Source: Ophelia neglecta | Lineage: Eukaryota | DNA length: 64,000 bases | Reading direction: 5' to 3' | Assembly: GCA_965285935.1 (NCBI GenBank) | Contig: OZ260666.1 | Span: 21,762,001-21,826,000, forward strand | In this document: piece after piece, positions 31,104 through 57,063 of the stretch | How positions within the stretch are numbered: position 1 is the first letter of the stretch | Layout of the letters: every line of letters begins with the position of its first letter | Notes under the pieces: model-generated | What the model saw: only the letters and a program-made list of their open reading frames with translations | Told to the model about the DNA's origin: nothing | The model's database searches: none | Made by a program: the position numbers and the translations under genes

Positions 31104-34100
31104 ATGCATTGGAAGGTGTTGCTAACGGTTACGCTGGTCTTGTCCTTGTACGTCGTCATTTCCGGGGTGATTTTCCACTTCATCGAGTTCAGTAACGAGG
31201 GTGTCAACAAGGATCGTATAGCAAATGCGACTGCAACATTTCTCGGTAGGACATCTGGTGGCTTACTCTGTCATTGCAAGCATTGTTGAACTGCCGCCGT
31301 TTGGTGTTTTTTTTTTTACATTAGGTTAACTATAGTAAATATTATTTCCTAAAACATCCTTTTGTTTTTTCTTTTAACTAATATCATATATGTAATTCAT
31401 ACTTTTGTTACTACTAACTATTTATAGTAGGCAGTAGCGGTAGTAGTACCTTGTGCTGAAACTGATGCCGAACTGTTATAGCAGATATGACTTATGAGTT
31501 CCGCAAAATATAAAACAATCATAGCTCAGAATTTTAACACATTCATTATGTTTTATTCCAGCTCAGCACCCAAGTGTTGACAAAGATGCCCTCAGGGCGT
31601 ACGCGATTGAGGTGATGGAGGCTTATGACTCCGGGGTGCTGGTCCCGGCTAACCAAACCGAGGCGTCCCACTGGGACATACCTGGCGCCATCTTCTTCGC
31701 CACCACGGTGGTGACCACTATAGGTATAAACCAAACTATTACACAAACATACATACATATACAGTGAAACCTGTCAATTAAGACCACCTAAGGGACTGTA
31801 AAATGTTGGTCTGTTTATGGTGGTGGTCGGCCTAGACAGGTTATTTTTATATTTAAAGTGTAAAGTAGGGTCTCCATATTAGTGGTCTGAATTGACAGGT
31901 GGTCTGAATATAGAAGTGGTCTTAAAGGCAGGTTTCATCGTACATTGACACCTTTGAATTAAGACCACCAAGGATGGTCGGATTTGGAGATGGTCTGTTT
32001 AGACAGGTTATTTAACATAGAAAGTATACCCCACGGTCTTCATATTAGTGGTCTGAATTGACAGGTGGCCTGATTATAGAGGTGGTCTTTAAGGCAGGTT
32101 TCACTGTACAGTGAAACCTGTGAATTAAGACCACCAAAGGGAATGGAAAATGCTGGTCGGATATTGGAGGTGGTCTGTTTAGACAGGTTATTTAACACAA
32201 GAAAGTATACCCCACGATCTTCACATTAGTGGTCTGAATTGACTCTGATTATGGTCTGATTATAGAGGTGGTCTTTAAGACAGGTTTCACTTTAAATATA
32301 CATGTATATGGCAGACAGTTCAGTTTGATGAGCGTACAGTTAGTTTTAATGGTATCTAACACTAATAATTCCTATTCTATTTAAGGGTACGGTCACATTT
32401 CTCCAAAGACGGTCGCCGGTCAAATCTACTGTGTTTTCTTCGCATTGACTGGGATTCCAGTGTGTCTTGCCATGCTCAGCGGGATAGGAGAATGTATCAA
32501 TTCATTGAAATCTAAGGTAGATATATCTTCACAGCTAATCCAAATAGTTTATTCATCAGTTTATTCATTCAGGGAGGGGTGGGGGGGGGGGGCAAAAAGT
32601 GGGCCTGGACCCGGGTCTATTTCTGGACCCACGCAAGGTGCTTTCAGAGGGTTGGTTACGGGTACAATCCAGACATATGCCTTGCCAGCCTTGGAAAATT
32701 TTGCCCCCCCCCCCCTTCCTGAAATCCTGGGTCCGCCACTGTTCATGAAACTGCGCTGTTCAAAAGGCACCTATATACTTGAAAGAAGTTTCTGGTGGAA
32801 ATGTTCATACATTTTTCAAAATGTGCTCGGATAGACGGAATTAAGAAAATGCTAACTGCAAAATGGTACATTATGGGGCTTTCCGCGCTGTCCAACTAAA
32901 CTACGGGCCATCAAATGTCGTCTAAAGCACGGTCCCACGATCTCGTTCAGCACGACCTAACAGGTTTTTCTCGCTGACCGATCCGCTATAGCGAAAAGAC
33001 TAATCCATGAAACACCGCGCTCCCAGTGTCCGCCGGACGGCTGCGTCCCATAAAAAATGGCCGCGCTCCCAGCGCCGGTCACAGCTTCAGCATGGCTACC
33101 TGATCCCATAGTTATTAACCCGTTAACCACTTGTTGGATATCGCCCAGAGATTGCAATGGTCACTATAGCAGACGACAATAGAGCTCCACGCGGAGGAAT
33201 CTCCTGTCTGCTCAGAACTATTTAGGCATTCACTACGACTCGCAATTAAATATCGTTATGATATCGTTATAAATGTAGGCTAGGATATATTCTTATGCAT
33301 TTATCTACGGTTACATTTTCAGATCGACAAGTCTGTGAGCAGGGCGTGTAAAGGGAGTAAGAAGAAGGTTAGCTGTTGCCGGAATCTGATAACCACGCTG
33401 CTGGCCATCTCTGTGTTTGTCATGGTGCCCGCGGTCGTTTTCATGGTGTTAGAGGATTGGTCATTCGGCGTCTCATTCTATTACGTCATCATCACACTCA
33501 GCACTGTCGGATTCGGTGACTACGTAGCTGGTAGGTTGTACCCTAGTAATATCTAAAACAGTATTTACATATGTAAATTAGTGTTTAATTTCACCATTTT
33601 TTTTATTCCGGGCAGTAAGAAGTTTTATTTTGTTAAAAGACAGATAGTAATCGGTTAGGTGTGAATCGTATTAAAGGTGAATCAATATAGTTAGGTGTGA
33701 ATCGTGTTAGGTAAAAATTAACACGGTTAATTGTGAATCAGCCCGGTTAGGTGTGATTCGTATAGAGTGTGAATGAATTTAGTTAGCTGAGAATCAACAC
33801 GGTTAGGTGTGAATCAATTTAGTCAGGCGTGAAGCAACACGGTCAGGTGTGAATCTATTTAGTGAGGTGTGAATCAACACGGTTAGGTGTGAATCAATTT
33901 AGTCAGGTGTGAATCATCACGGTTAGGTGTGAATCAATTTAGTCAGGGGTGAATCAACACAGTTGGTGTGAATTGTGTTATGTGGTACTCAACACGGTTC
34001 GTTGTGAATCGTGCTAGGTGTAAATCAACAAGTTTAGGTGTGAATCGTGCTAGATACATGTTAACCAACATGTCGAGGCGTGAATAGGTTAGGTGTGGGT

Positions 34101-35620
34101 TGGGGGATTGTCCTGGAGTTTCCTGCAATCTTTCAGGTTTAAACTAACCAGTGGGTGTCGGCAGAGCCATCTACCGTATATACTGGTAGTCTAAAGGGAA
34201 TAAAAAAATGAAAGGTAAACTTTTTCTTCGCGGTTTACGGTAAACATTTGTCCTGGAGTTTCCCGCATTCTTTCAGGTTTAAACCAACCAGTGGGTGTGG
34301 GCAGAGCCATCTACCGGATACTACTATGTGTTTACATTATCTTAGGCCTCGCGTGGCTCGCCAGCTGTATCTCGTCGATACAGGAGAGCTTTACCCAGAC
34401 GACAAGCCACGTGCAGGATATCAAAATAAAGGTAAGAATCTATCAAATCTAGTTAGTTTCAACAAAACGGGTTATCATATACATATATCGATCAAAATCA
34501 CAAAAATACATTGGCTTAGAGCTGGTAAGTCGCGAGCAATTAGTAAACCTTACTAGACACAATGGATGAGTATACATATATTTAAAAAAAGGAAAGAAGG
34601 TATCAATGTTGTTTATATACTGAGTTTATCAAATAATGTATATATAACATATGGAGGCTCCGTTCGCCACATTCATGCCCCCTGCCCCCCCCCCCCCCCT
34701 CCTTGACCCCCTTTCCCTTGTCGGCAGCGGTCCCCGCCTACATCCGCTATCCCATGCCCGCACCACCAACATCTAACTCCCAGTGCCCACATTTATCATT
34801 TACTGATTAACCTTGAAGAGCGTTTATGACCTTGCTGGGTAATCCATGACAAGTCATAATGAGCGTGTTTGTCCTTGCTGGGTAATCCGTGACAACTCCT
34901 AATGAGCGGGTTTGTCCTTGCTGGGTAATCCGTGACAACTCCTAATGAGCGGGTTTGTCCTTGCTGGGTAATCCGTGACAACTCTTGATGAGCGTGTATG
35001 TTATTGCTGGTAATACGTGACAAGTCATGATGAGTGTGTTTGTCCTTGCTCGGTAATCCATTACCATGACAAGTCGCGATGCGCGTGTATGTCCTTGCTG
35101 GGTAATCCGTGACAAGTCGTGATGAGCGTGTATTTCCTTGCTGGGTAGTCCGTGACAAGTCTTGATGAGCGTGTTTGTCCTTGCTGGGTAATCCGTGACA
35201 AGTTTAATGAGCGTGTTTGTCCTTGCTGGGTAATCCGTGACAAGTCATGATTAGCGTGCTTGTCCTTGCTCGGTAATCCGTGACAAGTCGTGATGAGCGT
35301 GTTTGTCCTTGCTGGGTAATCCGTGACAAGTTTAATGAGCGTGTATTTCCTTGCTGGGTAATCCGTGACAAGTCATGATGAGCGTGTTTGTCCTTGCTGG
35401 GTAATCCGTGACAAGTCACGATAAGCGTGTATATCCTTCCTGTGTAATCCGTGACGAGTCGTTCTTGTTCTTATTTTCTTTGTTCTAATTGCAGAGAAAA
35501 TCTTCCCCTGGTGATGCAAAAGACAAAAAAGGGTCCAAGGTATCTCCCGAGGTGATTGAAGTATACGAGGTGGAACATGACGTGGAATCCGATCAAAATA
35601 GATGGAACAGTCACATGTAA
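31104..35620 (+). CDS. Two-pore-domain K+ channel (K2P, KCNK16/KCNK5 TALK/TASK-2-like), paralog A, ~307 aa
   Basis: Exons 31104-31245, 31562-31723, 32386-32516, 33323-33530, 34277-34431, 35495-35620 (924 nt, in frame, GT-AG). P1 TTIG|YGHISP, P2 STVGFGDYVAG, four TM helices, M4 IYRILLCVYIILGLAWLA. Confidence 0.92.
31762..32292. mobile_element. Three tandem Tigger/pogo-like MITEs in intron 2 of K2P-A
   Basis: Same CAGTGAAACCTG family as 17901; units ~31762-31940, 31943-32106, 32109-32292, separated by TA. Confidence 0.8.
32557..32741. mobile_element. hAT5-like MITE (CAGTGGCGGATC family), 5-bp TSD TTCAT
   Basis: Right TIR GGTCCGCCACTG; degenerate left end; core shared with 49055, 54437 and 56494. 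Confidence 0.7.
33650..34095. repeat. Degenerate ~19-20-bp minisatellite (GTTAGGTGTGAATCAA...)
   Basis: Alternating CACGGTTAGGTGTGAATCAA / TTTAGTCAGGTGTGAATCAA units. Confidence 0.8.
34815..35458. repeat. 39-bp minisatellite (~16 units) in the last intron of K2P-A
   Basis: Unit GATGAGCGTGTTTGTCCTTGCTGGGTAATCCGTGACAAGTC(A/G)T. Confidence 0.92.
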
Positions 35621-36537
35621 AAAGTTTATTACCTTGATAACTTCTCCTCGGCAGTGGCGAGTACTCAGGAGATTAAATTCAGACGACACTATTGTGACCG
35701 TTCTTCTGAGTAGCAGTATCATCAATATAAAAGCTGGGGCAAGTAAGTTTACATACAATGTAGTGCTGGTATACTACTCAGGGTAGTGAATATAGGTTCA
35801 ATCGCAAATTGGTACTAAATCATCGCCCACATGCATTAAATGGTTCCCTTTCCTTGGCGAATCATATCGAATAGTACCCGCTGGTGAATCTACAGTAATG
35901 TTCCCTTGGCGAATTGGCACGAGTTGTACTGTCGCCAGACGTTGTGGCTTTCGCTAGAAAGTGTTCAAATTATTAACTTAAAATTCTATTTTTATAGTAT
36001 ACATATATGTATTTGTGGTACTTATATTGTGTAGTATATATATGTTATGAAAATCCAAAGTTTATTTTTATTATCTTTGTATATTTGCATTTATATATCA
36101 TAGACAAATATTATAAATGCCTAAGCCATTAAACTCAGAAACAAGCTTATCATCTTGTACAGTGATGTTTTTATATGATGCCGTTGATGCACTCAAATTC
36201 CTGTCACGTGTCCAAGTATAGCCACGTTTTTTGTATATTAAATCTATTGTATCAGCCAATCACCTTTCTTTATTTGTTCACACATTGGGAAATATTTCTT
36301 CAATGTTGGTTTTTTTCCTGCTTAAATCACCTACTCTATGCCAGGTTTAATAAGTCCTGTTATAAACATAAAATATAACATAAACTATAAAAAAGTATAC
36401 TTCATAATAATTATAACACATCTTTTTAAGTTATATTATATATGCTAGTCAACGGCCTCAGTGCACCACCCTCATTTTCCCCTTTTTAACGATTCACTGT
36501 CTCTAGAACGTGTTGGCTATCCTGGGGTTGGCTCTCT

Positions 36538-38769
36538 TTATTTCTTAGAAGTATTTCCATCTTCTTGGCTACCCGTGACAACCTCGGCAGGTTCCGTTTC
36601 ATGCTCGACTTTTTCCGTAACTGGCTCAGCAGATTCTTTTTCTGCCTGTGAAATAAACAAATAAACATTATTTACCCTTTATTAGCCTATCGTTGTCCAA
36701 TGCTTGGCAGTTTCTCCGTGTCGGTACGGGTTTAATTCTATATTAGATCGTGAACCGAACTACTTTATCAGTATATTACTACTTACCCGTAAACTGGCAT
36801 CTCCTTTTTCATTAGGATAGATCTTGGAATTATTCTGTGTTTTTCCGGTCGCTCTGTCGTCCTCCTTTTCCACTAGGCTGCTAAAAGCTTCCTGCACAAA
36901 AGCAATGAGGGTGGCCATCCAGGTGAGACCGAGAAGAATCCACACGGCCACAAACAGACGATACACTACCCTCCCCGCCGCCACACTGTCCTGGCCTGTG
37001 TAGTAGTATCAGAACCAAACATGTTAAAGGCGCACATCAGAACCTTATTCCCGGAGAATAGTATGCATTTTTGCCTAAAAAGATCTTTATTTAGTGTGCT
37101 TATTGAATTTCTTGACCCTGGGTAGCCCGAATAGTTTACAAATGTTATTCTTTGGAGCCCACCTCACAATGAACACGATAAACGGAATATTAAATGAAAA
37201 ATATTTATGTTAAGTCTTTAAAATAGTGTGCATTTGGTTTATCGAAATACGCTTCTAGTCTCAAATGTGTAATATACAATATATTTTTAATGAAATGTGT
37301 ATCCACTCGGATACGTTAATCTTTGCTCATGCAGCCTCTTTACCTTACTCAATGAATGAAGTGAATGACTATAATCTGGGATCTTTCTTTTTTTTATATC
37401 GGACCATAAACAACTGATATGTGACATGTATTCTTTTCAACAAAAAAAGTAACGCCGTCTGGATTTGAACCCCGGACCTCTAGCATGACAGTGGGGTATT
37501 TCACCACTAGGCCGCGAGTAACACGTTGATAGGCGACGTGTCTTACATATTAAAAGCAGGTAAACAAAAATTAAACCGGTTGGAGATCTGGCCTTATGCC
37601 ACATTCTCACCACTTGGATCAACACTTCCGGGGACAAGGACAGAGACCCAGCAAACAAACAGCTTCCATGCTCCAGCCGCGGGCTAGTTATCGAAAGACT
37701 TTGTAAAGATGCCCATTGAAACTTGTGAATTTGCACTCCTAGTTGAGACTAGGTACATCTGTATCTGCCATCTCAATTTTTGGCTATTGATTAAACGCGG
37801 ACGCGCGGAAACTATGCGGACGCGGAGGTCATGGGTATTTCTGAGTGTCATGAAGGAAAAAAAGCGTCAGCAGGCTAGGGTTAGGACGGAGGGTTAATTT
37901 CAGGGTTAGGGGAAGGGTTAGGGACAAGTTTAATAGTGCTCTGTTATAATTTCAGGATTTACTTCCGCAAGGCTCCGCGTTTCCGCTTTTAATCAAAAGC
38001 CCAATATTTGATAGGTCTAGGAACATCTGCCATCTCACTTTCTGTGAGGCCTCTTGTGTACATACATGTAGTTTCGTGATGTTCGCCACTTGTATATTAA
38101 ACTACTCTTTTATAACCCTCTGGTATATGTAAAAGTGTATTACTTCCGGCAGAGTTATGTAACCCTTGTTCGAAAAAACGACAACAGGTACATTTTATTC
38201 GTTTAGGAAAATACGATAATAATTCCATAATGCAGTAGTTATGTGGATTTTATCGTTGTCATATTAATAACTGCTTAAAAATGCTATTTGTTCTATTGTG
38301 GTTTATGTCCATACTGTTTAGTATTTATTTGTTTAGATTAACCAGATGCAGTTGTACAAGTTGGCTCCTGTGCAGCCTCCGTATGCGTTTGGCGTACACT
38401 TAACGGACTTCTGAAATATTCTCACCTGCAACGTAATCCCCGAATCCTATTGTGGTCAGCGTAACGAAACTATAGTAGAGACTGTCACCGTAACTCCAAT
38501 CTGTCTCCACAAGGTGAAATAGGAGCGGTAACAGGGCGAGGCATTTCAGTGTGTTCTCACATAACTTGCCAGGTTTACATTTTGTTCCTTTGGCGACACA
38601 TTTGAATATGACACCTTTCAGTTTTTCCGCCAAATTGGCAGTCGCCACGAGGAACAGAGGGATGCCAATACATGCAAAGAAAACACAGAAAACTCTTCCG
38701 CCCGTGGTCGAAGGCGATATGTTCCCGTAACCTGAAAAACAGAAATGCTTGAGGTTAACACGGGAACAT

Positions 38770-38837
<68 letters not shown>

Positions 38838-41800
38838 CAGTGGTAATTAACTGTGTTCCATCCGTTTTATGATTCTATAGGTGGATGGTACAAACTAATT
38901 ATTGAAAATTGACGCTACCAACCAGCACTCTATACGCTATAGTTAGGTGGCGCTGAAGGTTAGAAAAGCGCGAGGCATGCCGGGTAGGAGTCGAGCACTG
39001 AAGACACAATGCATTTAGGCACCTTGTAGTAGCATCAGTCCCATATGAATATATTTTTGTGAAATTCAATATGGATTTTGGCCCGCTCCTCAAATTAAAG
39101 TTTGCTTGTAAAATGTGTCTAAAAGCTAGAAATAATGAACCTACCTATGGTGGTGGCCACAGTGGTGGCGAAGAAAATAGAGCTGGCCACATCCCAGTTA
39201 CTCTCGCTGGTCTGGTTCCCTGACAGAGATACGCCGGCCGACTGGGCTGTTTGAAGGACTTTGATAAATGCATCTAACTCCTCCACTGTCAGACACGTGT
39301 TGTTGGCTAAAAACAAGAGACATTGATGGAAAAATGGACTAGAAAATAGTAAGAGAATTAAGGGTGGATACCAAAAGAGTACAAAACAATAATGCATCAT
39401 TGCTCTGGAGTATAAAGTCGATGACTAATCGCCTTCGTTCTCTGGACGTTTTGGGAGTGTTAGCACCCGTTCATTGGATAAAAACAGGGCTTAATTATTA
39501 TTGGTAAGAAGTGAATGACTCTCGGGAAAAACAGTGATTATCAGTGAAATTATAGTCTCCGGGGGTAAAAATGAATCCGGTCAGATTCCAGAGACAAGAG
39601 TAGGGGACTGACCTGAGCAGGAAGATTATTTGGAATTAAAATCACCCTGCATTTTATAATTTAATAGCGGAGTTCTATGTTTATAGCACCACTTCTCGTA
39701 CTGTATATGAAGAGTGTGGTAAATATTCACTTTATATTGACATACACGCCGACAGGTGTACAGGTATACTCTGCTTCTTAATAGCTTATTTGATATTGAA
39801 AATATCGCTATAAAAATTTGGATCCATAAGGACAAATCTATTGTAAATTCCTACAATATACATGATCTGCCTTTGTATGTCACACGTACGAACATATCTT
39901 CTTCTGTGAAAAATTTTAAGATTGAATCTAAAAAATATGTACAAACAATTCTGGATTGATGTCATTCATGACACCACAGCGAATCCTATGAACATGTTGT
40001 ATATTTAGATCGATTTTTTGTGTGAAAAATAATTGCAGTGTAATATTTTTAATGGTTTCAGTGTTTGTGATGACCCTCATTTCCTGTTCATGTGTCTGTG
40101 TTTTAGTAACATTGCTTTCTTGTTCGAATACAACCTAGTTCACAAAATATGAATGTGTTCAATGTGACACCAAAGTACATATATTTGTCAATATCCTTGC
40201 CTCGCAAGATCTCCGAATTATCAAGCGTCTAGGTAAATATAGAGTTCACTTATTTTTTTAATCTTTTATGAATGTAACTTTGTTTTAAACATGTGTACTA
40301 TAAAGTATCATGTAATAAATCTTCTGACTCACGATACTAGAGATAGCATTTTTCACCCGTTATCAAGTGTGTTGTTAGCGTAAACATACGGTTCTAGCTC
40401 AATAATCAATATTATTCTAGTGGTTTCCGTTGGAAGGTAACTCCGCCCCACAAAGCTGATCAATTGTGCCTTTCGTCATTCAGGTTCACATGTCCTGCGA
40501 CAGTCGGCATGATTTTGACAGCCGTCACTAACGGCCCACGACACACTATATGTACATAGAAACCCGGCTTAGATACATTGATAATCTTGGACTAGCGCTG
40601 TCTTCTAAAGGGTTTAATATCAATGCACCCCTCCCGCACTCTATCCCTAACCTACCAGACACTATATATTACTATGTTAATAACCTCAACTCTGACACTT
40701 TTCACTCCTCTAATCAGCGAGTCAAGACCGTTGTCAGCGGAATTTACATTGTACGAATTGCGATGCCGGATACACAATCACACAGTCCCTTGACGACTGA
40801 GAAATAATGCCTTATCCATTGATTGCATCGACCAGGTAAAATATCGCAGACAAAGGAAACCGGGGGCAAAACTCTTTCCACCGCCCAGTGGTACACCCAG
40901 CAGACATAGCAATTATATATTTTCATAAGGCGGAAATGTGTGTACCCATGCTCAGTTAAATGCCCCCATTTCAAGGAATATGGCTTGAATTTTTGTTCAT
41001 ATTTGTTGAAGTAACCTTTAGCAGTACATATATTCTTTTATACAACGGAGGTCAGTTCAGTGTAGACATAGGACTTACACAATCTACCGACTCGACACTT
41101 TATCATAATAAATGCACAATACCCACATCTATTATCTACAGACGTTGAGAATGTTTGCTTTGTTATTTGCCGTTATAAGTAACATGCGATATTCTCTTGT
41201 TCAGAAATGTCCTTTTTTTTCAAATTCGCGGGGATTATATTGAAAAAACTTCTTTTTCTCCGTAGATCGCGGACCACGGCGTCGTGGGTAAAAATCAGCC
41301 TTCTCCGCGAAATTCAGAACGAGCGTATGGACCCATTTCCTTGCAGAGTGGAAGGGACCGGGAGAGGCGCCCGTATTGCTGAGGACAAACTACAGCTACT
41401 GAGAATAATAATCAATATATATGGTAGGCCAAGACACTGATTTGACGTCCTACAGGTGACAAACAGCATGTGCATATGCATGGCCTTACGTCAAAACAAA
41501 CTTTACTGGTCAAAGAATGCCCATAGAAGCACTGTTGTTCAGGAGGAATCTGTTCAACGGTCTGTCGGTAACCAACTATACACTCCGAAAACGTTTCTTG
41601 GTAAATATTAAGGGATAGATTAGTATTTATGCCGGGGGGGGGGGGCGAAGGGGGGGGGGAGGGTGCCGGGCAGTATTTGTTGGCATCTCTTTAATGGGGA
41701 TTGGTGGTGGTCAACAACTTTTACCTTACTTGTATTTGTTACTACAGTTTGTTTCTATAGTTTTCCGCCCAAAAAAATGCTGCTTCGCGCCATGCTAACC

Positions 41801-42729
41801 TAATTTTTAAAAATGTTATCCCCCTTCATTCTCGAAAAAGTCTGGCAAATTTCAGGAATCGTACCAAGAGAAGAAAAAAAATGAAACGTGTCCTTATAGC
41901 CAAATTGGTTTCAAAGGGGGCGGGGGAGGTTAAGGGAAAAATAGTCGACTCATGCAAGGGGCCCGTGTGGGAATATCTCTGTTCAGATTTAGGCTTAGTT
42001 AGTCAAAGTCTATCAACCGATTCGTGTCGCGAACTTATTCTGGGTTTTTGTCGGCATAGGGGACATCATCCCCTGCCTTAAACCCCAATCAGAAAGGGCG
42101 ACGGCGGCGCATGGACATTCCCCAGTCTTCTCGGGGGTCATGAGTCCTGCTACCCGTCTTCTATCACTGTGGTATCCCTCCTCCACCTCCTCCTGCTCGT
42201 TCTCCGTGGACAGAACTCAACATGCTCTCTTCCTGTCTTCTGAACCCTGGACCCATACCCGTTGGCTTGACCCTGCCACTCACTCCGCATATACCCCTCC
42301 CCCATCAAAAAAAAATCCCGACTTTCTCAACATATGCTTAACCCTTTCCCTACCCCTCCTAAGTCCCTTAACACAGACAGATTTTCACAAAATCACTCTT
42401 CCTATGGACTATTACAACCCTTCTCTCCCCGTCCCTTTATTCTGAAACCCTCTCACAGAACTGATTAATGGGCGACTAAAGGGAAGCCTTAAGCTACCGG
42501 ACCCGACCCTGATTGACTAACATCATATTTGGATGTTTTTATATTTTACACGTAGGCCTGTGCATCTTACTACATGTACGTACATACCTAGTACACGTTC
42601 TCTGGCTCCCACTGCTGTTACCCGAGACTCCTCCTCGCTTCTGGATTCAACGAAATGAAAAATCACTCCTCCAATAATCACATAAACCAGAAGCGTAATG
42701 ATGACCAGAAATAAAGTTAATCCCCTCAT
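36538..42729 (-). CDS. K2P channel paralog B (TALK/TASK-2-like), ~308 aa, with a 10-aa in-frame deletion in M3
   Basis: Exons 42729-42588, 39306-39145, 38731-38426, 36995-36787, 36645-36538 (927 nt, in frame). P1 TTIG|YGNISP, P2 TTIGFGDYVAG, M4 VYRLFVAVWILLGLTWMA. Confidence 0.9.
37450..37521 (-). pseudogene. tRNA-Asp(GTC)-derived pseudogene or solo SINE head
   Basis: Minus strand GCGGCCTAGTGGTGAAATACCCCACTGTCATGCTAGAGGTCCGGGGTTCAAATCCAGACGGCG: A box, CTGTCA anticodon loop, B box GGTTCAAATCC, then T7. Stems are mismatched. Confidence 0.6.
37782..38001. mobile_element. Merlin-like MITE (GGC ends, 8-bp TSD, internal GGTTAG motifs)
   Basis: TIR GGCT(A/T)TTGATTAAA(C/A)GCGGA; TSD CAATTTTT/CAATATTT (7/8). 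Confidence 0.7.
38770..38834. repeat. (TA)n microsatellite
   Basis: Directly visible. Confidence 0.95.
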
Positions 42730-44329: not shown

Positions 44330-45420
44330 GAACAACATTTGAATTTTATCTAGAAATACTTTATTAAAAACAAGTTTGTACAATCGGATATAATTATATT
44401 ACAGATATTGCTAAAATTCTGATTGCTAGACTAACCGTTCGCGCATCCCTTGTGTTGTGCCTTCTAATGTGATATTGATAATTAAAATAAAGCCTTTGAA
44501 ACTTTCTTGTAATAAAATAATGGGTTATTGATAACTAGATCATCTCTTGTTTAATTTTATATGGCCAGAGAAAATACTAATCAGTCGAATCGTACAAAGG
44601 AAAGGGTGAGCAGGAGTATTAAAAGAAATTACGAAGATGGTGGGTTAAGAATGTTTGGAGCTAATTTGATAATTAAAAACGTTGATTGGAATGAGTATCG
44701 TATTTATCGTCAATTCGGAACTTTCTCAGAGACGTAGGAAGGAAAATCAAAGTGGGGGGCCAACTTTACATTAGCGGCATAAAGGACGAAATTGAGATTG
44801 GGGGGTGGGGGTCGGGAAAGCTAATTTAGATTTACGATATACTCCAAATTAAAACGATAATACACGGAATATTGAGGAAATCGTGTGAAATAATTTACCC
44901 ATATTATACTAAAGAACAATTTCTATTGGAATTACTTATACATAGGGTATTACAGACTTAGAAATTAATTATGCTTTGTAGTGAAGAAAATTATATTTGA
45001 GGGAAAAAACATGAGCAAACATGGGTATAGGTACCCCAGCCAGGACTAGATCTATACACAGAATATGAGTGATGTGTAATTAACAATGCTACACCAAAGA
45101 ACATTTACAAAAAGTAATACTGTATGAAGGATTATACTGGAAAGCATATACATTAAGCTTAATAAAGAAAGTTGAGTGAATCACTCAACAATTTCCTGAA
45201 AAGTACATAAAGATTTTGTGAACATGAGAACACTATTGAAAATCAAACAGTAAACATGAAAAAATGACTTGCATATATTGCAATGAAGAACCTTGTACTG
45301 AAAGTCACATTTATTAAAGTGAAGAAAAATGTCAATTACTCATACTATGGGACATGAATACAGCTCTGGCCATGAGAAAGTTGTGTGAAATAGGCCTACT
45401 TGTACTCTATCACATAATTA
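44330..45420 (+). pseudogene. Decayed L1/Tx1-like LINE ORF2 C-terminal fragment
   Basis: Remnants KRNYEDGGLRMF (~44620-44655), LLIHRVLQT (~44930-44960) and zinc knuckle CIYCNEEPCTESH (~45270-45310). A paralogous piece lies at ~51960-52160. Confidence 0.6.
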
Positions 45421-45586
45421 CTGCTGCATTACACCATTTTAAGAGGGCAAAACGTGAGAGGGTCATCATTAAAAAGTGTGGGGGGGGGGGGGGGGGCAAA
45501 ACATATGATGCCCCACCCCCCACTTTTTTTAGGTGGGGGATCCATGTCCCCCCCTCCCCCCCCCCCCCCCGCTTCCTACGCCACTG
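44727..45586. mobile_element. hAT5-like element ends enclosing LINE-derived sequence, 5-bp TSD TTTCT
   Basis: Left CAGAGACGTAGGAAGG, right CTTCCTACGCCACTG; TTTCT at 44722-26 and 45587-91. Same family as 26679-27106, inverted. Confidence 0.6.
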
Positions 45587-45997
45587 TTTCTGTGGGTAAT
45601 TTGTCACAAAAATGTTTTGGCCATTAAACTCATGAACAAGCTTATCATCTTACCGTTTTATTTTGACATGATGCCGTTGTACGCGCTCAGCTTCTTGTCA
45701 CGTGTATTAAATCTGATTTATAAACCAACCTACTTATTTTGTTAACGCATTGGAAAATATATCTTCAATGTTTCATCTTTTCATCATTAAATCGCCTACA
45801 CTACGGCAGTTTAATAAGCCTGTTTACTACGATCCTTAAAATGTGAACATAAATCGTATGATGAACTACAAATACTAGTATGATATAGTTCATTATTTTG
45901 CTTATCTTGTAGAGGGATTTTTCATTTGCCAGGCAACGGACTAAAGCCCCACACTCATTTTCCCCGTTTAACGATTCTTTGTATTTTGACTGTTTTT

Positions 45998-48900
45998 CTA
46001 CGTACAAATTTTTCCATTTACATGGCAACCCACGGCGCCCTCGGCAGATTCCGTATGATGCTCGTCCATTTCCGTTACTTGCTCATCAGACTCTTTTTCT
46101 GCCTGTAAAATCAACAATTTTAACTTTTTATTTACCATTTATAGACATTTCCATTGTTTATTACTTGACATGTTCTCCGTTTCTGTACAGATTTAATTTC
46201 ATATTATTTATGAATATATCTTGAACGGAACTACTTTATCAATATAATACTACTCGCCGGTAAACTAGCATCTCTGTTATCGACACAAGGATTTATTTTA
46301 GAATTCTTCTGTGCTTTGCAGCTCGCTTTCTCGTCAACTCTTTCGAACTGTTTGTTAAAAGTTTCCTGGATATAAGCAATGAGAATGGCTATCCAAGCGT
46401 GACCAAAGAGAATCCACACGGCCACAAACAGACGATACACCGCTCCTGCTGGCATGGCAGTGTCCTGACCTATATAGTAAAATCCCAACACGTTAAAAGC
46501 GCATAGCAATACCTTGTTCTCGGAGAAAAGAACCCATTTTGTGCCTCATGTACGATCTCTAAAAGACTCCCCTCCCCATCCACCTAACTCCAACACACGA
46601 CATCCATGGACATAGACTGAACCCCACTTAGCAGAGCTTCCTTGCTCCAGCCACGGGTTAGTTTTCGAAAGGCTTCGTAAAGATACCCATCAACAATTGC
46701 GATTGTTCCTTTTTAGTTCGGCTTTTGATTAAAAGCGGAAGCGCGGAAACTTGCGGAGGTAAATCTCGATATAAGAACAGAGCACTAGACCTATTAAACT
46801 TGTCCCTAACCCTTCCCCTAACACTAAAATTAACCCTCAGCCCTAATCCTAGCTTTGCTGACGTTTATTTGCTTCCTGTCACTCTGAAATACGTATGACG
46901 TCCGCATAGCTCCCGCGCGTCCGCGTTTAATCAATAGCCTTTAGTTCAGGATTTGGGCATTGTTATATATTATATGTAATAGTGGAAGACTTAAACCGGG
47001 TGTTTTGAATCCCGCCACTGTGTGTAAATGTACCCCATTTGAGAGGTTTGTAATTATTTTTCTTCTTTGCTATGCACTCACTATTAATTTGATAAACTCA
47101 TAATTGTAAATAATATTTTTCTTTAGCTCCTATTCTGTTCAATTTCTTTAGCTCCTATTCTGTTCAATTCGAATACCAGTAATAAGATAAATTCTTGAAA
47201 TATTTTTTAAAATGTTTCAAATATAATCCCCTGTTATGTACAAAATGTATAAACCCCCGTAGTCTCCAATCTGCGTGCGCCAATCTGACTTGTAAAAACA
47301 GGCTAAGATACCCGTCAGTTAAGACCAAAGCATTCATAAGGTAAATATTATTATATCGTTCTAAAATAACAATGAATTGTCAGTTACATATCTTGATACA
47401 TATGTACCAATGGCTTTTGGCTTAACACAGCTGATATTAGTAAATAATACATAAAGTTCATTTTCACAATATGAGCTTTAATTATCACCTGCAACGTAAT
47501 CTCCAAATCCTATTGTGGTCAGCGTAACAAAACTATAGTAGAGACCTTCACTGTAACTCCAATCTGTCTCCACGAGGTGAAATAGCAGCGATGGTAGAAA
47601 TATAAACAGCAGGAGAGACACTAACAAGGCGAGAGATTTCAGTACGTACTCACATGACTTCGCAGGTTCACATTTCGTTCCTTTGTCGACAAATTTAAAT
47701 ATAATTGTTTTCATTTTTTCTGCCAAATTAGCAGTCGCCACAAGGAATAGAGGAATTCCGATACATGCGAAGAAAACACAGAATACCCTGCCACCTGTGG
47801 TAGAAGGGGATATATTCCCGTAACCTGAAACACAAATGATGGTATTTAACACATCTGAATGTGAGCAAAGTTAGCGCTATTAGATTTCACGCCTAATGCA
47901 GGCACGCCCTATAGCGCTAGTGGATGGTAGCCTAAAAGCGCTTTAATATGGCACCCCTAGGTGGGTCACCCAGGGCAATTCCGTGACCGTGAAGAGCAAA
48001 GGTTCGTTTTTTTTCATGGATTCATCTTCTTGGAGGTCTAAATAATAATTTAGCCCCCGATGCCTATTAAAAAAATGTGGGCGAAATTTTTGAGAGGCCA
48101 AAATTCAAAATGGCTGCCGAAAAATATGAATTTTTATTTTTTTTACATAGATTGTGGCATACTATTTGGGGGTCAATGAATCCAAATCTGGCATTATATT
48201 ATTGTTTTGAATCACTTTTGACCTTCAAAGAGGCAAAAATCCATTATGGCCGCCAAAAGTTATAATTTTAATACTTCATTTTCATGGCGGGATAATAAAT
48301 GGTTTTCACTGTTTTAGGGATCAAAGGAGTAAATTCACAAGTTAGTTAAATGTTTTGAGGTAGGTCTGACCCTCCACTAAAAATTTAAAGGGCTGAAATC
48401 CAAAATAGCCGCCTAAATGATGAGATGGTTTTTGAGGTGTTGGGGGTCAAATGATTCAAATCGTGGATTTATTCGATGTTTTGAACATTTCTGAACCCTA
48501 ATGTAAAGCTCTAAGAATACTCGTCCGATAAATATCATACATATGAAACACAAAATGTTCACAAATCTAATCAAACATATGCTGAATGAACAAAACTAAC
48601 ATTTTATTACCACAGTGTATAGTATGCAAGCCCAACATTTTAGCCAGATCTGTTCATTATGACTTTAGCTGTCGCCATCAGAGTCTGTCGATTCTCCACA
48701 CGCCCTGCTGTCATTGTCATCATCACTAGGTTCTTCTTCAATATGGATTTTGGTCAGTTCCTCAAATAAAAGTTAATGTTCGTATTGTGTGTAACATCCG
48801 GACTTATTTAACCTACCTATGGTGGTGGTCACAGTGGTGGCGAAGAAAATAGAGCTGAATAGATCCCAGGTACTCTGGCTGGTCTGGTTCCCTGATAAAG

Positions 48901-49619
48901 GTACCCCCGCTGTCTGAAGGGCTTTGATCAACGCGTCAAACTCCCCAGCTGTTATATTGTGGTTTGCTGAAAACAAAAGACACTGTGGTAAAGGCCGATA
49001 AGAGTAAGACATCTCCCCCCCCAAAAAAACCCCCACTTTTTTGAATAGGATTATCAGTGCCGGATTTAGGGGGGGGGGGGGGGCGAAAAATTTTGCCAGA
49101 AAGTGGGCCCGGACCAGGGCCTATTTCTGGACCCATGCAAGATGCTTTCAAACAGTTGGTAATGGGGACAACCCAGACATTGCCCTGGTCATCCTTGAAA
49201 ACTTTTGGGCCCCTCTTCCTGAAATCCTGGATCCGCCACTGATTATATACCCTCCCCCTTTCACACCCCACCAACTACGAACACATCCCTGTTCTTGTTT
49301 GCTAAAGCCTTCTTTTCTGAACTAAGGGGGTGGCAAGGGGGGGGGGGAAGGGGCTCTCGTCTGCCGGAAAGAGCAGCCTTAGGTTATTAATCCGTACCTG
49401 ATAGATAATAATCATGTCGCATATTAAACATTTTTTCATATCCTTCATGTAGCCTGGATATCTGACTGGGTACATACCTAGTATCTGTTCCTTGGCTCCG
49501 AACACTGTATTATTAGTCCCCTTCTCGCTACTCGATTCGATAAAGTGGAAAATCGCTCCTCCAATGAACAAATAAACCAAAAATATAATGATGACTAGAA
49601 ATAGAGTTAATCCCTGCAT
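45998..49619 (-). CDS. K2P channel paralog C (TALK/TASK-2-like), ~314 aa
   Basis: Exons 49619-49478, 48966-48817, 47824-47489, 46469-46258 (GC donor), 46102-45998 (945 nt, in frame). P1 TTIG|YGNISP, P2 TTIGFGDYVAG. Confidence 0.88.
46720..46939. mobile_element. Merlin-like MITE, same family as 37782-38001, opposite orientation
   Basis: TIR GGCTTTTGATTAAAAGCGGA / TCCGCGTTTAATCAATAGCC; perfect 8-bp TSD TTTAGTTC. Confidence 0.78.
49055..49241. mobile_element. hAT5-like MITE, 5-bp TSD ATTAT
   Basis: CAGTGCCGGATT...GGATCCGCCACTG flanked by ATTAT. Confidence 0.8.
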
Positions 49620-52174
49620 TTTGTATATAAAACCGTATTCAAATCTCCTACATAGTTAATTTATTTCACCGACTAATTTCACGATGGATGTTCAATGGAT
49701 ATCCACAAAAATAAGTTTATACATTCGTCCAGAGCGTTTTAAGTCACACAACTCAAGTCAAACCCTTATTAACTATATATTAACTATATATTAACTATAG
49801 AACTGAGACCCCATTTGTCCCACTAGTCATAATTAATTATCAATTCATATCATTTGTTGTTTTATTAGTTTACCCTTTTTTCACCATGCTATTAGCATCA
49901 CTGTACACGCGTTGAAGTGTCAGTCAACCATTATTATTAATGCTAACCATTTTAAGAAGTTTCCAGGCATTTTTTTTATGTAAGGTAAACATTGACATCG
50001 CTTGCGGATCAAGGGGAGAGGGGAGGGGGGTGGGCGGGGTGGTAACTTGGGGACAGGAATGCTTCCTGACAGGTAAAAAGGAGGTCTCCAAGAGAACTAA
50101 GGGACACGCACCATAGGCTAAACGGGGGCGGGAGCGGAGAGGTGGGGGGGGGGGGGGGGGATTTTCGACAAACCACTTTTTTTGGAGCGAGAGAAACATG
50201 CAATTTGTTTTTGCGCTTCCAGAAAAAAAACTTATATAATTTAATAAAAACCGCCTTATCATATCCCCCGTAGCGCCTACGTAGTAGGCGGACATATCGT
50301 TTTTTACTGAACGGCGTCGCCGAATATCTGTTGTGTGAAGTCTGGCATTCGTTTATTTTGGGCAGCTAGAATATACCATTGTCTGGTCGGGGATTGTTTT
50401 TGAGTAACCTTCGGAAAAGACAATATGGCCGCCCATTTCATCTAAAAATGAGTGCCGCCCCTAACACGGAACAATATTCTTGTACCTGGAGGCAAACTAT
50501 TTTGGCTAAGTATGCAGAAGGACACTTTCTTTTTCTGCATTCATGGCCAACCAATTTTTTCCCCGGAATCTTCACGCCCACAACCACTCCCGCCTGTTAG
50601 CTAAAAGTAGTGCATCCCTAACAGCCTTTCTAAATCCGTCCGCCTCTTGATCACAATAACATTAGATATTCTTAAAGCGTTAATCAGTTCCTAAGCCACT
50701 ATTTGACAATCGAATAATTTTGTAGTGCTAGAATATTCTAATTTCCAATTAATGAATTAAGCACACGCGTGCACTGAGAGGTTTGTATAACAACTATTAC
50801 CATATTTCAACACAAATGTTGGCCTAATTTTCTGATCTCTGGTCTATACACTGTTTGATATTGTGAACACACAGGAAACTGGATCATAATCATTCATATA
50901 TTCTGCTGATTCAGGGGGGTGTCGGAACTAAGGGAAGTAAGGGCCTGCGAGGAGAAGTGGATCGGGTGGCATTTATAGTAAACTAGTAAGACTTTCTAGG
51001 ACTGGGTGATGTTATTATCTTAAAGAATATCATTAGAGAGTCATCATTAGAAGCGGTCATTCTTAAGGATGGGGGTGGGGGAGGGGTCAGACGGCAGGGC
51101 ATACTGGGGGAGCCCAAGCGGGGGGGGGGGGGTAGGGTAGGGGGGAGTAAGTTAGAGAGTGGTTACTGAAATCTGTTCTAACTATTGAAATTAGTCTGGC
51201 ACAAACAAGTCCATTTTATGAAGTCCGCCCCCCCCCCCTCCCCCCAGTTATCTAGTGATTCTCCCCGTATCTGACTCGGTTCCGCTTGACGTGGACACCC
51301 CTAACCCCCCCCCCCATCCACCCATCCCCTTTTCCTTGTGTTACCTTATTTGGCCAGTAGCCAAGTTGTTTTTTAACAGACATAATTTGCATATATCAGT
51401 TCCTGTCCTAGTAGATTAATCTGGCCAAGAGGGTTTTTGATTAATACCAAAAGACGATTGGTAACATTAGGATTATAGTGTTGTCTCCTTTAAAATAAAT
51501 ACTATTAGCTTGTACACAGACATAGCCCACTGTGTTTGGGCGATGGACTGTCCCTTACTTAGGCTTCTATGTACACAGAAAATTGACAAAGGTGATTATC
51601 CTGCAGGCGGTCCACATATAGGAATAGGCCTATACTCAGAAAAAAAGTAAGGTTATTTCTCTATGCTGCACCTCACAACTTATATTAGAGTTATACATAG
51701 GAAAGACACCATTGTGTTTCTGGAAGGAACTACCCACAATCTATAGTGTTAAACCTTGAAAAAGACCATTCTGTTTTGCCTAAGATAAACCTATATACAT
51801 AGAAATAATACATCTCTCTGTGGGGTTGGCAACAACGGCGACACTACAAAGAAAGTACGGGTACGTCATGGCGTTTCTCCGAAAGCGACTGCCCAGAAAC
51901 TTAATAGTTAGGTCCGTAGACATTCTGCTAGGTTGCTGAATAAAATTCAAGTATTCCTACCATTTATTATTTCACAGTTTATCTATTGGATGCGAGCCAT
52001 AGTGATACCAAAATGGATTATCGATCACCTAAATAATAAAATGTAAAAGTTTATATGGTCAAGTAGTATTGATCAGTTGAATCTTTCAATGGATATAGTC
52101 AGCTGGAGTCAGGTATTATAAAGGGAAATTACGAAGATGGTAGGTTGGTGGTGTAATATTCAATAAAAAGATGC

Positions 52175-53169
52175 CAGACCACAGAGTTAGACCATAGAGG
52201 TCAGACCATAGAGGTCAGACCATAGAGGTCAGACTATAGAGGTCAGACTATAGAGGTCGGACCATAGAGGTCAGAGCATAGAGGTCAGACCGTAGAGGTC
52301 AGAACATAGTGGTCAGAAAATAGAGGTCAGAAAATAGACGTCAGACCATAGAGGTCAAAACATAGAGGTCAGAACATAGAGGTGAGAACATAGAGGTCAG
52401 ACCGTAGAGGTCAGAACATAGAGGTCAGACCATAGAGGTCAGACCATAGAGGTCAGAACATAGAGGTCAGAGCATAGAGGTCAGACCGTAGAGGTCAGAA
52501 CATAGAGGTCAGAACATAGAGGTCAGACCATAGGGGTCAGACCATAGAGGCCAGAACATAGAGGTCAGAACATAGAGGTCAGACCGTAGAGGTCAGAATA
52601 TAGAGGTCAGACCATAGAGGTCAGACCGTAGAGGTCAGAACATAGAGGTCAGACCATAGAGTTCAGACCATAGAGGTCAGACCCTAGAGGACAGACCATA
52701 GAGGTCAGACCATAGAGGTCATAGAGGTCAGACCATAGAGGTCAGACCATAGAGGTCAGACCAATGAGGTCAGACTATAGAGGTCAGACCAATGAGGTCA
52801 GACCAATGAGGTCAGACCATACAGGTCAGACCATACAGGTCAGACCATACAGGTCAGACCATACAGGTCAGACCATACAGGTCAGACCATACAGGTCAGA
52901 CCATACAGGTCAGAACATACAGGTCAGACCATACAGGTCAGACCATACAGGTCAGACCATACAGGTCAGACCATACAGGTCAGACCATACAGGTCAGACC
53001 ATACAGGTCAGACCATACAGGTCAGACCATACAGGTCAGACCATACAGGTCAGACCATACAGGTCAGACCATACAGGTCAGACCATACAGGTCAGACCAT
53101 ACAGGTCAGACCATACAGGTCAGACCATACAGGTCAGACCATACAGGTCAGACCATACAGGTCAGACCA
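52175..53169. repeat. 14-bp satellite, ~70 units (AGGTCAGACCATA[G/C])
   Basis: Variable TAGAGG-type units up to ~52815, then near-perfect TACAGG-type units. Confidence 0.96.
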
Positions 53170-54061
53170 CTAGAGTATTCGATATAGAGAACGGAAAACT
53201 AGACACAGAAAAATGTTCGCCGGTAAAAGTTATTTTTTCACGGTATACTTTCGACTATGCCGTCGCCCAAACTGTGTAGAAGAAAAACTGGATCCATTTT
53301 CGAGATGCTTTCTTAAGTTTTGGGATATGATTATCCTATTTTCGCTTAGCTGTGACTGCGTTAACAGGTGTTTCCATTGACTATGGTTAAACTTAAAACC
53401 AACACGCGATACCAAATTAAGACCGATTATTCACTTTATTCGGATTTTAACCCGTGTTTATACCGCTTCTAGAAACCGTGCCCAGAAGTAGTATTCATTG
53501 CGACACGCTGACACATCTAATTTTGCTTGGTCGAACTCCATTTCTCGTCCCGAGGACCATGCTCGAGTTGACTCGGAGCCTGTTGGCCCAGTGGCGCTAC
53601 ATGACACGTGATGGCATATGAGATGTTGTAGCTGCAAATTTCCCAAACCGTAGTCAGTGAATTACTGTCAGAAAGTATTTGCGTACCAATTTTCCAACGA
53701 ATGGGCCTGTCGCAGAAGTATAAACAGAAATACAGTCAGGTCATCTCCCAGACGGCTCTCTGTTTCCCGGGCATATGAGTATCGACGATGAAATGTCGGA
53801 CTGGTTTCATGTCTCCCGGACACTGAGTACACAAGCATCCGAAATGAAATGTCGGGCAATCTGGCTGAAGCGGCTTGTACGTTCATTTGATATATACCTC
53901 CAGTGTCTCTAGAGCAGGAAAACAAATAAATATCTAGGCTGTAAGATTATTACTATGTCATTCGCCACTGACGCTTAGGTTTGCACAATAAACACTGACT
54001 CCTGTCGGCGTTTAAATGCTGTTGTTTTCTACTAGCTCTTCATTTGACAATATTCATGATG

Positions 54062-57000
54062 TCAACTTATACCGACAGTTTCGTATTTTTCCATTTTAGG
54101 CTGTCCATGCTCTCGGTATAGCTGTGAAATAAATGTTTTGAAATTGGTTACAGTTTGATGTACAATCATTCTATGATTTTAGTTTAGTTATACGCATTTT
54201 TTTCTTTTGTACAAGGATACACGTTACATATAGCCTACATTAATAATATACATATAGCCTACATTACTAATATACATATAACCTACATTACTAATATACA
54301 TATAACCTACATTACTAATATACATATAGCATACATTACAAATATACATATAGCCTACATTACTAATATACATATAGCCTGTATTACTAATATACATATA
54401 GCCTACATTACACCGTTACCTTCTCACAACCCATGGCAGTGGCGAATCCAGGATTTCAGGAAGAGGGGCCCAAAATTTTCCAAGACTGTCAAGGCAAATG
54501 TCTTGATCGTCCCCGTTACCAACCCTCTGAAAGGGGGGGTGCCAGCCCTGCCCCCCCCCCCCCTGAATCCGGAACTGCATGGATAGTTTGACTACGTGAT
54601 TGATATATCAATAATCACCTGGGCACTTTCATACTCAAATTCCACAATGTGATTTCTGTTGGAGTTTTTCAGTTTTTCGTCTTTTGAATTGACCACATTC
54701 TCGTTTCTTTGGAAGTGTTTTGTGATAGCTTCCTGCGAGATGGCGATGAGGGTTCCCATCCAGGCGAGACCACAGAGAATCCAGGTGATTATAAACAACC
54801 GATATCCTGTTCTTGGAATCAAGTCGTCTGCTCTACCTAGAGGGGAAGTGAGTTCTTAAAATTACGTAAGGAATGTTCTGACGAAACCCTTAGCAGTTAT
54901 ATTAGGGACAATCGAAAATGATAATGTTCATACGTTCAAAACTTTAGTTGCAATTTTAAGTTTAAGATAATGTTCAAACGTTCAAAACCTTAGTTGAAAT
55001 TTGAAGTTTATGTATAAAATAACCAGTGGTCGTCAGGCCACGCTTAAATAAAGCTATTGTATTGGCCGTCAACTTAAATATGCTGGCCGACAGTGAATAT
55101 TCGCGTGATTAGAAAGACGATGAAACAGTTAACGATCATTGATGATGGTTGTAGAGCCCACCAGATGCTGACGCCGAATCGTGCAAAACCGATCACCATA
55201 GGGCTTACAAACGAGGAGCCAATCATCGCAGTGTTTACAAATGAGGAACCAATCATTGCAGTGCTTACAACATAGCTAGATCAGGTCGGGTTAGGGTCAG
55301 GGTTAGGATTAGCTACGCACGATTTAGAACGCCAGGAAACCTTTAGTAATGGTCATATCTTACCCGGCACATAATCTCCGAATCCTATGGTTGTCAGGGT
55401 AATGACACAGTAGTATATACTCGTACTGTAATCCCATCTCTCTGTATGTTGAAACAACAAAGCCGGAAGGAACAGAAACACACCGGCGCTCAACAGGAAA
55501 AAGATCACTTTCAAGGTCAAATTCCAGAGTTTTCCTGAGTGGCAATTCCTCCCCTTGGAGTACACTGCATTGGTGAAATGTTTCATCTTGTCTGCCACTG
55601 CTTTGGTCGCCACAAGGAAAAGAGGGATTCCGATACAGGCATACACTACACAGAACTGACGGCCTGCAGTCGTTGTTGGTGCTCTCATGCCATAACCTGT
55701 AGAACAAAACGGGTCGAAGTGAAAGAAATTCTCCCCTGCTAACCAATTTGCCAAAAAGCCAAGCAGGTGCACGGTTAAATTGTCGATTACCACATGGGGT
55801 ACTACACCAGTGTTATATGTTTTAGGAAATCGGAAGTGGGGACATGACGTCATACATTTCATGTTTTAGATTTATCGTAGGCCATGTTTAATTATACGCA
55901 AGTTTGAGATTTGCAAAGGATCCCGAGTGGATCTATTTCGTCTGATGTTTAAATCAGGAATACTAAATTACCATACAACATTTTTGTCTGATACTGAAGT
56001 CAGTCCGAATGCATTGACGTATGTCTATGAACTAACAACCAATCTGAGAGTAAAAAGACCAAATAAATAAATAGTGTTGATTATTTCTGAAATCCTCTAC
56101 ACTACTTACCTATGGTAGTTACCACGGTGCCTGCAAATATCATGGCGCTGAACACATCCCAGTTACTGGCGGAAGTGTGATTGCCTGAGACTGAGATGCC
56201 ATAGTAGTGTCCAGTCTGCAGTGCTAATACCAACCTTCCCAAGTCTGCTTCGGTGACACATGTGTTATTACCTAGCGAAAGAATAATGACCTGCTTATGT
56301 TTTTCGCAAATAAAAGCCACAGTTGGCACAGGCAGTACTAATGTTTAAAGAAGTTATATTTATTTTGCTAAAAATTATAGCACTCATATAGGGTTGAGTG
56401 TCCATTGTGTTATTGTTGAACACGTGTCTCTGTAACTAATGCTGAGTTTGTTTCGTCCACACTTATACGTAGCTCGTATTGTTTGTTTCCTTGCAGTGGC
56501 GGATTCAGGGGGGGGGGGCAGGGGGCCCCCAAAAAGGGGGCCTGGACCAGGGCCTATTTCTGGACCCACGCAAGGTGCTTTCAGAGGGTTGGTAACGGGG
56601 ACAATCCAGACATTTGCCTTGTCAGGCTTGGAAAAATTTGCCCCCCCCTTCCTAAAATCCCGGATCCGCCACTGCCTTGTTACATTTTCTTACAGATCGG
56701 AAAGCCCATGTATATTGGTGTTCGTCTGTTATTATGCTTTAATTTGTTTGCGACATTGTTACGTCATTGTATGTTCTTTACTCATGTTCATGTTTCATGA
56801 TGCCTGCATTTCGCTATCAGTGGCATAAAATATTAACAACAACATTTGTTACCGATAGTAATGGCTTAAATAACTTTCTATGGTATACTTCCATTCGAGC
56901 ATTGTCCTTCAAAATACCTACCTAGAAATGTTTGTCTCGCCTTGAGCACCGCGACCCGAGCATTCTGCTCGCTCTCTTCTTCCGTGATATAAAATACCAC

Positions 57001-57063
57001 TCCTCCCATTATGATGTAAGCCAAGAGGGAGCCTAGAACGGCAAATACGGTCAATCCCTTCAT
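54062..57063 (-). CDS. K2P channel paralog D (TALK/TASK-2-like), ~304 aa
   Basis: Exons 57063-56922, 56271-56110, 55696-55364, 54836-54619, 54121-54062 (915 nt). The last exon is uncertain: a further short exon after an acceptor near 53910 is possible. P1 TTIG|YGMRAP, P2 TTIGFGDYVPG, M4 GYRLFIITWILCGLAWMG. Confidence 0.88.
54225..54410. repeat. 24-bp minisatellite (~7.5 units)
   Basis: Unit TACATATAGCCTACATTACTAATA. Confidence 0.9.
54437..54577. mobile_element. hAT5-like MITE (internally deleted, inverted), 5-bp TSD CATGG
   Basis: CAGTGGCGAATCC...AATCCGGAACTG flanked by CATGG. Confidence 0.75.
56494..56674. mobile_element. hAT5-like MITE, 5-bp TSD CCTTG
   Basis: CAGTGGCGGATTC...GGATCCGCCACTG flanked by CCTTG. 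Confidence 0.85.

Follow-up and report, generated by a model that had tools for sequence, protein, structure and literature searches.

A turning-over tandem array of two-pore-domain potassium channel genes with a shared M4 arginine in Ophelia neglecta

The 64,000-nucleotide stretch of Ophelia neglecta DNA analysed here (assembly GCA_965285935.1, contig OZ260666.1, positions 21,762,001 to 21,826,000; hereafter the window) contains four genes, A to D, for potassium channels with two pore domains (K2P channels), arranged in a tandem array. These genes probably encode background K+ leak channels of an ordinary duplication-and-loss array, opened by alkali through an arginine inherited at the entry of the fourth transmembrane segment (M4), and the differences between them would represent drift and incidental tuning. 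An original prediction for the same DNA had described them as a lineage-specific, possibly heterodimerising panel of differently tuned pH sensors.

Four K2P (KCNK) open frames were found at 31.1-57.1 kb, which bears out the four paralogues in 26 kb, and a six-frame motif scan of the window recovered every motif named in the original prediction. The gene models were built from DNA alone, their splice sites being AG/GT with one GC donor, and the C-terminal exons are the least secure. All four models carry both pore domains, with TxGYG and TxGFGD filters, in one subunit. Exon pieces of A, B, C and D score above the cut-off of PF07885, and the best structure matches of the array genes are TREK, TASK and TRAAK chains. 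For exon 3 of gene C, the solved K2P chains matched are TREK-1 first (E 1e-19), and also TASK-1, TREK-2, TASK-3, TRAAK and TASK-2. As for the extracellular M1-P1 cap, exon 2 of A and D can be aligned with TREK, TWIK-1 and TASK-2 chains over both cap and pore helix. The uncharged run of M3 is long enough to span the membrane in A, C and D (22-23 residues) and counts 12 residues in B as assembled. By analogy with vertebrate K2P channels, the intact products among A-D are predicted to form dimers passing a background K+ current.

The M4-entry motifs IYRI (A), VYRL (B and C) and GYRL (D) are all present. Arg228 of A (34315..34317, plus strand) opens M4 at the site of TASK-2 R224 and TALK-1 R233, and its counterparts on the minus strand are Arg216 of B (36960-36958), which aligns with R224 of TASK-2 chain 6wlv, Arg222 of C (46434-46432) and Arg225 of D (54801-54799). 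The basic residue typical of TALK channels at M4 entry (R224/R233/K242) is therefore found in A-D. R224A in TASK-2 and R233A in TALK-1 abolish external pH gating (PMC3725403, PMC9168622), the pK of TASK-2 is 8.0 (PMC3026807), and in TASK-3-H98N a titratable residue at the M4-entry site (V221H) suffices to restore pH gating (PMC3026807). These sources agree with the vertebrate roles originally given for the R224, H98 and cap positions (PMC3026807, PMC3725403, PMC9168622).

From 19 matches of a search of the genome with D exon 3 and 95 matches of a PF07885 search, 16 stretches were taken. Seven more TREK/TALK-like loci (E-K) were modelled beyond the window, plus pieces of TASK, TWIK, THIK and TRESK-like genes; the resulting 11 TREK/TALK-like loci are a lower bound because of this sampling. 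The M4 arginine is present in 11/11 of them, in the THIK orthologue of the genome and in human THIK-1, as well as in relatives from Paralvinella, scallop, abalone, crinoid and amphioxus. Since it occurs in all 11 loci, the THIK orthologue and molluscan relatives, it is inherited and not a mark of the cluster. In a column-based census of homologues (275 scorable of 312 selected proteins, a set rich in vertebrate TREKs), the M4-entry residue is Lys in 134 and Arg in 69, thus basic in 203/275. The combinatorial variation first proposed for pH-sensing and assembly positions does not extend to the arginine, which is invariant in the 11 modelled paralogues; the residue following GYG and the cap cysteine differ as listed.

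A phylogeny of 40 rows (LG+G4) was then used to place the four genes; it excludes the THIK and TRESK-like rows as well as 31 of the reference rows, and its bootstrap had not fully settled. B and C are recent sisters (100/99), as are D and E (100/99), and B, C, D, E, G and H form a clade (100/100) with F and I as its weakly supported sisters. A falls outside the B-H clade and joins Paralvinella, Lingula, molluscs and Macrostomum in a spiralian branch (87/98), within which its position is unresolved. It is 34-39% identical to B-D, and B is 65% identical to C. Forcing A-D into one clade costs 94 log-likelihood units (approximately unbiased (AU) test, p-AU 9.7e-8), so the four window genes are not a single expansion. 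The proposed lineage-specific expansion can be kept for B, C and D together with E, G and H outside the window (100/100) but not for A, which is excluded by the same test (AU p=9.7e-8). Both the vertebrate TALK clade (99/87) and the TREK clade (100/100) exclude A-D. Nor is A an orthologue of TASK (KCNK3/9): the TASK orthologue of the genome is a separate locus (L009), whose best named matches are from Paralvinella palmiformis (82%) and Capitella teleta (76%). Scored against 367 fetched proteins, the genes B, C, D, E, G and H met no sequence closer than their own paralogues, although 'lineage-specific' here means only unseen elsewhere in this comparison, as annelids are thin among the named matches. 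A is an older paralogue, and the six-gene clade was found in this genome only.

Gene A (31104..35620, plus strand) encodes a subunit of 307 amino acids in six exons of a splice-site model (31104-31245, 31562-31723, 32386-32516, 33323-33530, 34277-34431 and 35495-35620), the last of which is predicted from splice signals only. Besides Arg228, it carries histidines at two further sensor positions. His105, following the first filter GYG (32394..32396), aligns with H98 of TASK-1 chain 6rv2 and occupies the H98 position of TASK-1/3. His84, in the motif SHWD (31669..31671), occupies the position of TREK-1 H126, and counting back from I292 in four mammalian TREK-1 proteins confirmed it as residue 126. 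H126 is the extracellular proton sensor of TREK-1/2 (PMC8514629, PMC6790391). The three sensor positions could be scored together in 256 homologues: a histidine at the H126 position occurs in 25/256, none of which (0/25) also has the H98-position histidine or the arginine, and the triple of A occurs in 0/256. This set is therefore unusual within the homologue sample. B, C and D have Asn or Thr at the H126 position. Within A, the exon-5 acceptor, together with the first codons of that exon, is partly duplicated 140 bases upstream of the real acceptor (34121..34195, plus strand); this copy soon meets an in-frame stop and, with its putative acceptor near 34137, is a possible decoy splice site. 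Minisatellite arrays were also observed at 34800-35470, 52725-53279, 21721-22195 and 54190-54400, one of them occupying most of the last intron of A.

The other two positions named in the original prediction were confirmed in the alignment. The residue after the first GYG is His in A, Asn in B and C and Met in D; the cap cysteine is present in B and D, replaced by Ser (AGT) in A, and lost in C with its codon. Among the 275 scorable homologues, the residue after GYG is Asn in 202 and His in 51, and His occurs together with the M4 arginine in 11. Asn, His, Tyr or Met is the normal K2P set after the filter (PMC8436263), and Drosophila TASK7 retains the His yet is proton-insensitive (PMC6790391). 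The Asn, His and Met of the array accordingly lie within the ordinary K2P range, and a His at this site is not sufficient for proton sensing in TASK7. Of the 11 loci, 8 retain the cap cysteine; the three that lost it, A, C and E, did so on separate branches, and AGT (Ser), one base from TGT, stands in this column in both A and E. A wrong acceptor hiding the cysteine in A or C was considered and rejected, as the modelled acceptors keep the frame and the standard 142/162-nt exon pattern and A has AGT in the Cys column. Removal of the cap cysteine leaves functional expression unaltered in TWIK-1, TRAAK, TASK-4 and TREK-1 (PMC4726246), and such tolerance makes the residue of little help in predicting how subunits assemble. 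In TALK-1, S97, F100 and L114 couple the arginine to the filter, S97G moves the pK to acid and F100I weakens the proton block (PMC9168622). At these positions, A and E have Gly for S97, and D has Ile for F100 and Arg for L114; Ser and Phe persist at S97 and F100 in B, C, F, G and H, where L114 is matched by an aliphatic residue. These are better tuning candidates than the positions first proposed, although S97 also varies among vertebrate TALKs.

Gene B (36538..42729, minus strand; 308 amino acids) has five exons (42729-42588, 39306-39145, 38731-38426, 36995-36787 and 36645-36538), the cap cysteine and Asn after GYG. Its first exon sits 3.3 kb upstream of exon 2; with this exon located at 42729-42588, the idea that B is a headless pseudogene was rejected. 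Relative to C, exon 3 of B has a 30-nt in-frame deletion at 38527..38532 (minus strand) which removes 10 residues of M3, so that the uncharged run is 12 residues compared to 22-26 in eight other measured paralogues. The assembled B allele is likely non-functional. Read runs X1, X2 and X3, which derive from one sample and may be the source of the assembly, were searched for this site. A single X1 contig (122 nt, depth 4.7, no mismatch) spans the deletion, which is therefore in the reads as well as in the assembly; X2 and X3 gave no contig across 38540-38571, a gap that is uninformative. Another B-like sequence present in the runs differs at 8 positions over 155 nt; 6/8 of these differences are C's letters and five are synonymous, and C itself differs at 25 places over about the same stretch. 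A loose contig end at the deletion point resembles the intact M3 of C and might derive from C, and in X1 and X2 the depth of window-type contigs is roughly half that of the B flanks, contig depth being a weak measure. Based on the second sequence, the loose end and the halved depth, the deletion is probably heterozygous. Between 36400 and 50000 of the window, contigs of the one sampled individual diverge from it by several percent in places (16/426 and 13/551 bases), and in exon 3 the haplotypes combine letters of B type with letters of C type. Among the public runs, none from RNA was listed, a result neutral as to expression. This mixing, together with the divergence of these haplotypes from the window, suggests gene conversion between B and C.

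Gene C (45998..49619, minus strand; 314 amino acids) has five exons (49619-49478, 48966-48817, 47824-47489, 46469-46258 with the GC donor, and 46102-45998). Its cap exon lacks four codons, among them that of the cap cysteine, and within M4 it has a His (46401-46399, minus strand) where the other aligned rows have mostly Leu or Met. Gene D (54062..57063, minus strand; 304 amino acids) also has five exons (57063-56922, 56271-56110, 55696-55364, 54836-54619 and 54121-54062); its cap cysteine aligns with that of TREK and TWIK-1, and Met-Arg follows GYG (55688-55683, minus strand).

Beyond the window the array goes on: a partial, broken D copy is followed by a frameshifted fifth gene, E. The region at 56.2-64 kb is copied directly downstream at 91-97% identity, with D exon 1 missing from the copy and exon 2 cut; this tandem copy may be a real duplication or an uncollapsed haplotype. 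Next to D lies a matrix metalloproteinase gene (PG_binding_1, Peptidase_M10 and Hemopexin; 60010-64000, plus strand), a second copy of which, duplicated in tandem along with the broken piece of D, has ~95% identity (L001 3133-9291). Gene E lies 13 kb beyond the window (stretch L002 5910-3232; G000:C9:21838232-21840910, minus strand), has no cap cysteine and Met after GYG, and its 343-nt exon 3 is frameshifted in the M3 part. A second K2P cluster, of F, G and H, all three open through M4, was found elsewhere (L003, L005 and L006; G000:C1:98.267-98.296 Mb), and F combines His after GYG, the M4 arginine and the cap cysteine. The remaining loci lie on the minus strand: I (L007 4838-4497) has Ala-Asn after the first filter and GLG in the second, J (L008 4911-4579) has Gln-His after the first filter and a relative, P0343, 84% identical over exon 3, and K (L011 6214-6080), in which a frame break interrupts exon 1 and the second filter has diverged to GLGE, may be a pseudogene or an assembly error. 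The E frameshift, the partial D copy, the B deletion and the K frame break make a birth-and-death array likely.

A single-ratio codon model gave a ratio of nonsynonymous to synonymous substitution (dN/dS) of 0.21, and pairwise values were 0.31 (0.21-0.43) for B-C, 0.28 (0.17-0.43) for D against the 5' part of E, and 0.16 (0-0.26) for G-H. Synonymous sites are near saturation beyond the B-C and D-E pairs. Selection is thus purifying and moderate, perhaps looser in young pairs though the intervals overlap, and the pairwise ratios of B-C, D-E and G-H gave no signal of positive selection.

Elsewhere in the window, a rhodanese-domain exon (PF00581) at 14910-15701 (minus strand) likely belongs to a mercaptopyruvate or thiosulfate sulfurtransferase. 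An uninterrupted frame of 312 codons at 5886-6824 (minus strand) has no Pfam match at E 0.001; by eye it is reminiscent of ATP-grasp ligases, to which we presume it may be related.

Among known channels, the TALK subfamily (TASK-2/KCNK5, TALK-1/KCNK16 and TALK-2/KCNK17) resembles the array in having four transmembrane segments and two pore domains, the M4 arginine in register with R224/R233, the cap cysteine (B and D), a short C-terminus and clustered genes. However, A-D lie outside the vertebrate clade (99/87) and lack both the Glu at R+4 and the Lys that TASK-2 has at K245. The TREK subfamily (TREK-1/KCNK2, TREK-2 and TRAAK) ranks high among the structure matches of exons 2 and 3, and A, alone of the four, shares its H126-position His, but its clade (100/100) excludes A-D, it has Lys or Gln at M4 entry instead of Arg, and the short C-termini of the array cannot be aligned to its own. 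Spiralian 'KCNK16-like/KCNK10-like' genes (Paralvinella P0015, Lingula P0238, Gigantopelta P0240, Haliotis, Pecten and Macrostomum P0009) share the branch (87/98) at 36-45% identity, most with the M4 arginine and the cap cysteine, yet no external protein falls inside the B-H clade. Finally, A shares the His after GYG with TASK-1/3 (KCNK3/9) and TWIK-1, the H98-position His and the missing cap cysteine both being TASK features, and D and E share Met after the filter with THIK-1. These are single-residue matches and not orthology, since orthologues of TASK, TWIK and THIK occupy other loci of the genome. Heterodimers are known within K2P subfamilies (PMC9520024; list in PMC11554511) and are plausible for the array subunits. 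In a search of literature listings that covered few subscription papers, no functional study turned up for TREK/TALK-like channels of annelids or other spiralians, and measurements of proton sensing by K2P channels from animals other than mammals and Drosophila are scarce (PMC6790391).

Taken together, these features favour alkali-opened leak channels, by a mechanism modelled on vertebrate work. The subunits would pair, and a protonated M4 arginine behind the selectivity filter would hinder K+ passage; external alkali would neutralise it and open the filter gate. We regard this gating of a background K+ current as rather likely. Additional closure of A in acid, through its two histidines, is put forward only tentatively. 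Gly at the S97 site of A and Ile at the F100 site of D could shift or weaken the pH response, and the prediction that pH curves differ somewhat between paralogues seems evenly balanced. Such differences among duplicates would reflect drift with incidental tuning and not a designed combinatorial code. Several points weigh against this interpretation. Human THIK-1, which is only weakly pH-sensitive, carries the same M4 arginine, and TREK-1 has Lys271 at the M4-entry site, yet H126 is the residue named as its sensor. A passage of the Concise Guide gives no pH gating for THIK-1 (PMC11339754). A-D lie outside the vertebrate TALK clade and lack the Glu at R+4 used by TASK-2, which TALK-1 lacks too. 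The second B-like haplotype may be full length. Moreover, a dN/dS well below 1, together with the open frames that A, C and D retain, suits a preserved, possibly specialised function no less than drift, the dN/dS intervals of young and old pairs overlapping.

It was also considered that the paralogues form a selected panel of heterodimerising sensors, each covering its own pH range in chemosensation or acid-base control. The arginine kept in all, the triple of A (0/256), Gly in A and E and Ile in D at positions altering TALK-1 gating, Arg of D at the L114 position contacting the sensor, and dN/dS below 1 are consistent with such a panel, and the human TALK genes are clustered and form heterodimers with new pH curves (PMC9520024). 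The residues, their vertebrate roles and a lineage-restricted expansion stand. On the other hand, A-D are not one clade, A lying outside the expansion; the arginine does not vary; Asn, His and Met after the filter are ordinary; His and Arg occur together in 11/275 homologues as well; the H98-position His leaves Drosophila TASK7 proton-insensitive (PMC6790391); and the cap cysteine, dispensable in the human channels tested, was lost three times (A, C and E), twice to a Ser codon one base from Cys. Two of the six clade members are damaged as assembled, B by its short M3, and the pairwise ratios are without sign of positive selection. Selection of the paralogue differences as a panel is hence unlikely, both as a general explanation and as a component of the leak-channel interpretation. 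A bolder form, in which a spiralian alkali-gated K2P branch radiated into a pH palette, with the H126, H98 and R224 sensors of A covering the whole acid-to-alkaline range in one chain, D retuned by its second Arg and F100I-type change, and mixed dimers filling the steps, appears quite improbable.

Alternatively, the arginine may serve a structural role, like the one attributed to the Lys of TREK-1, and the subunits may be pH-indifferent or silent leak channels answering to stretch, lipids or phosphorylation, with several duplicates decaying. A basic residue is the family default (203/275, including TREK, TWIK and THIK), the clade is not vertebrate TALK, and C has its cap deletions and a His inside M4, B its short M3 and E its frameshift. 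This explanation is nevertheless doubtful: the residue is Arg, never Lys, in 11/11 modelled loci spanning ~30-65% identity, B, C, F, G and H retain the TALK-1 S97 and F100 residues with an aliphatic residue at L114, and the V221H transplant experiment shows that the M4-entry position can gate by itself (PMC3026807).

Genes A-D are further members of a known channel type in a turning-over array, with one testable oddity in A. The array has some use as a natural mutant series, and is otherwise an annotation of ordinary ion-channel genes. The pH of seawater is ~8.1, and the pK of TASK-2 lies near this value. Should A, C and D indeed prove alkali-gated, they would become candidates for sensing the pH of water or body fluid in an invertebrate, and the arginine sensor would predate the protostome-deuterostome split. 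Gene A offers a direct test of whether three separately described sensors add up in a single subunit.

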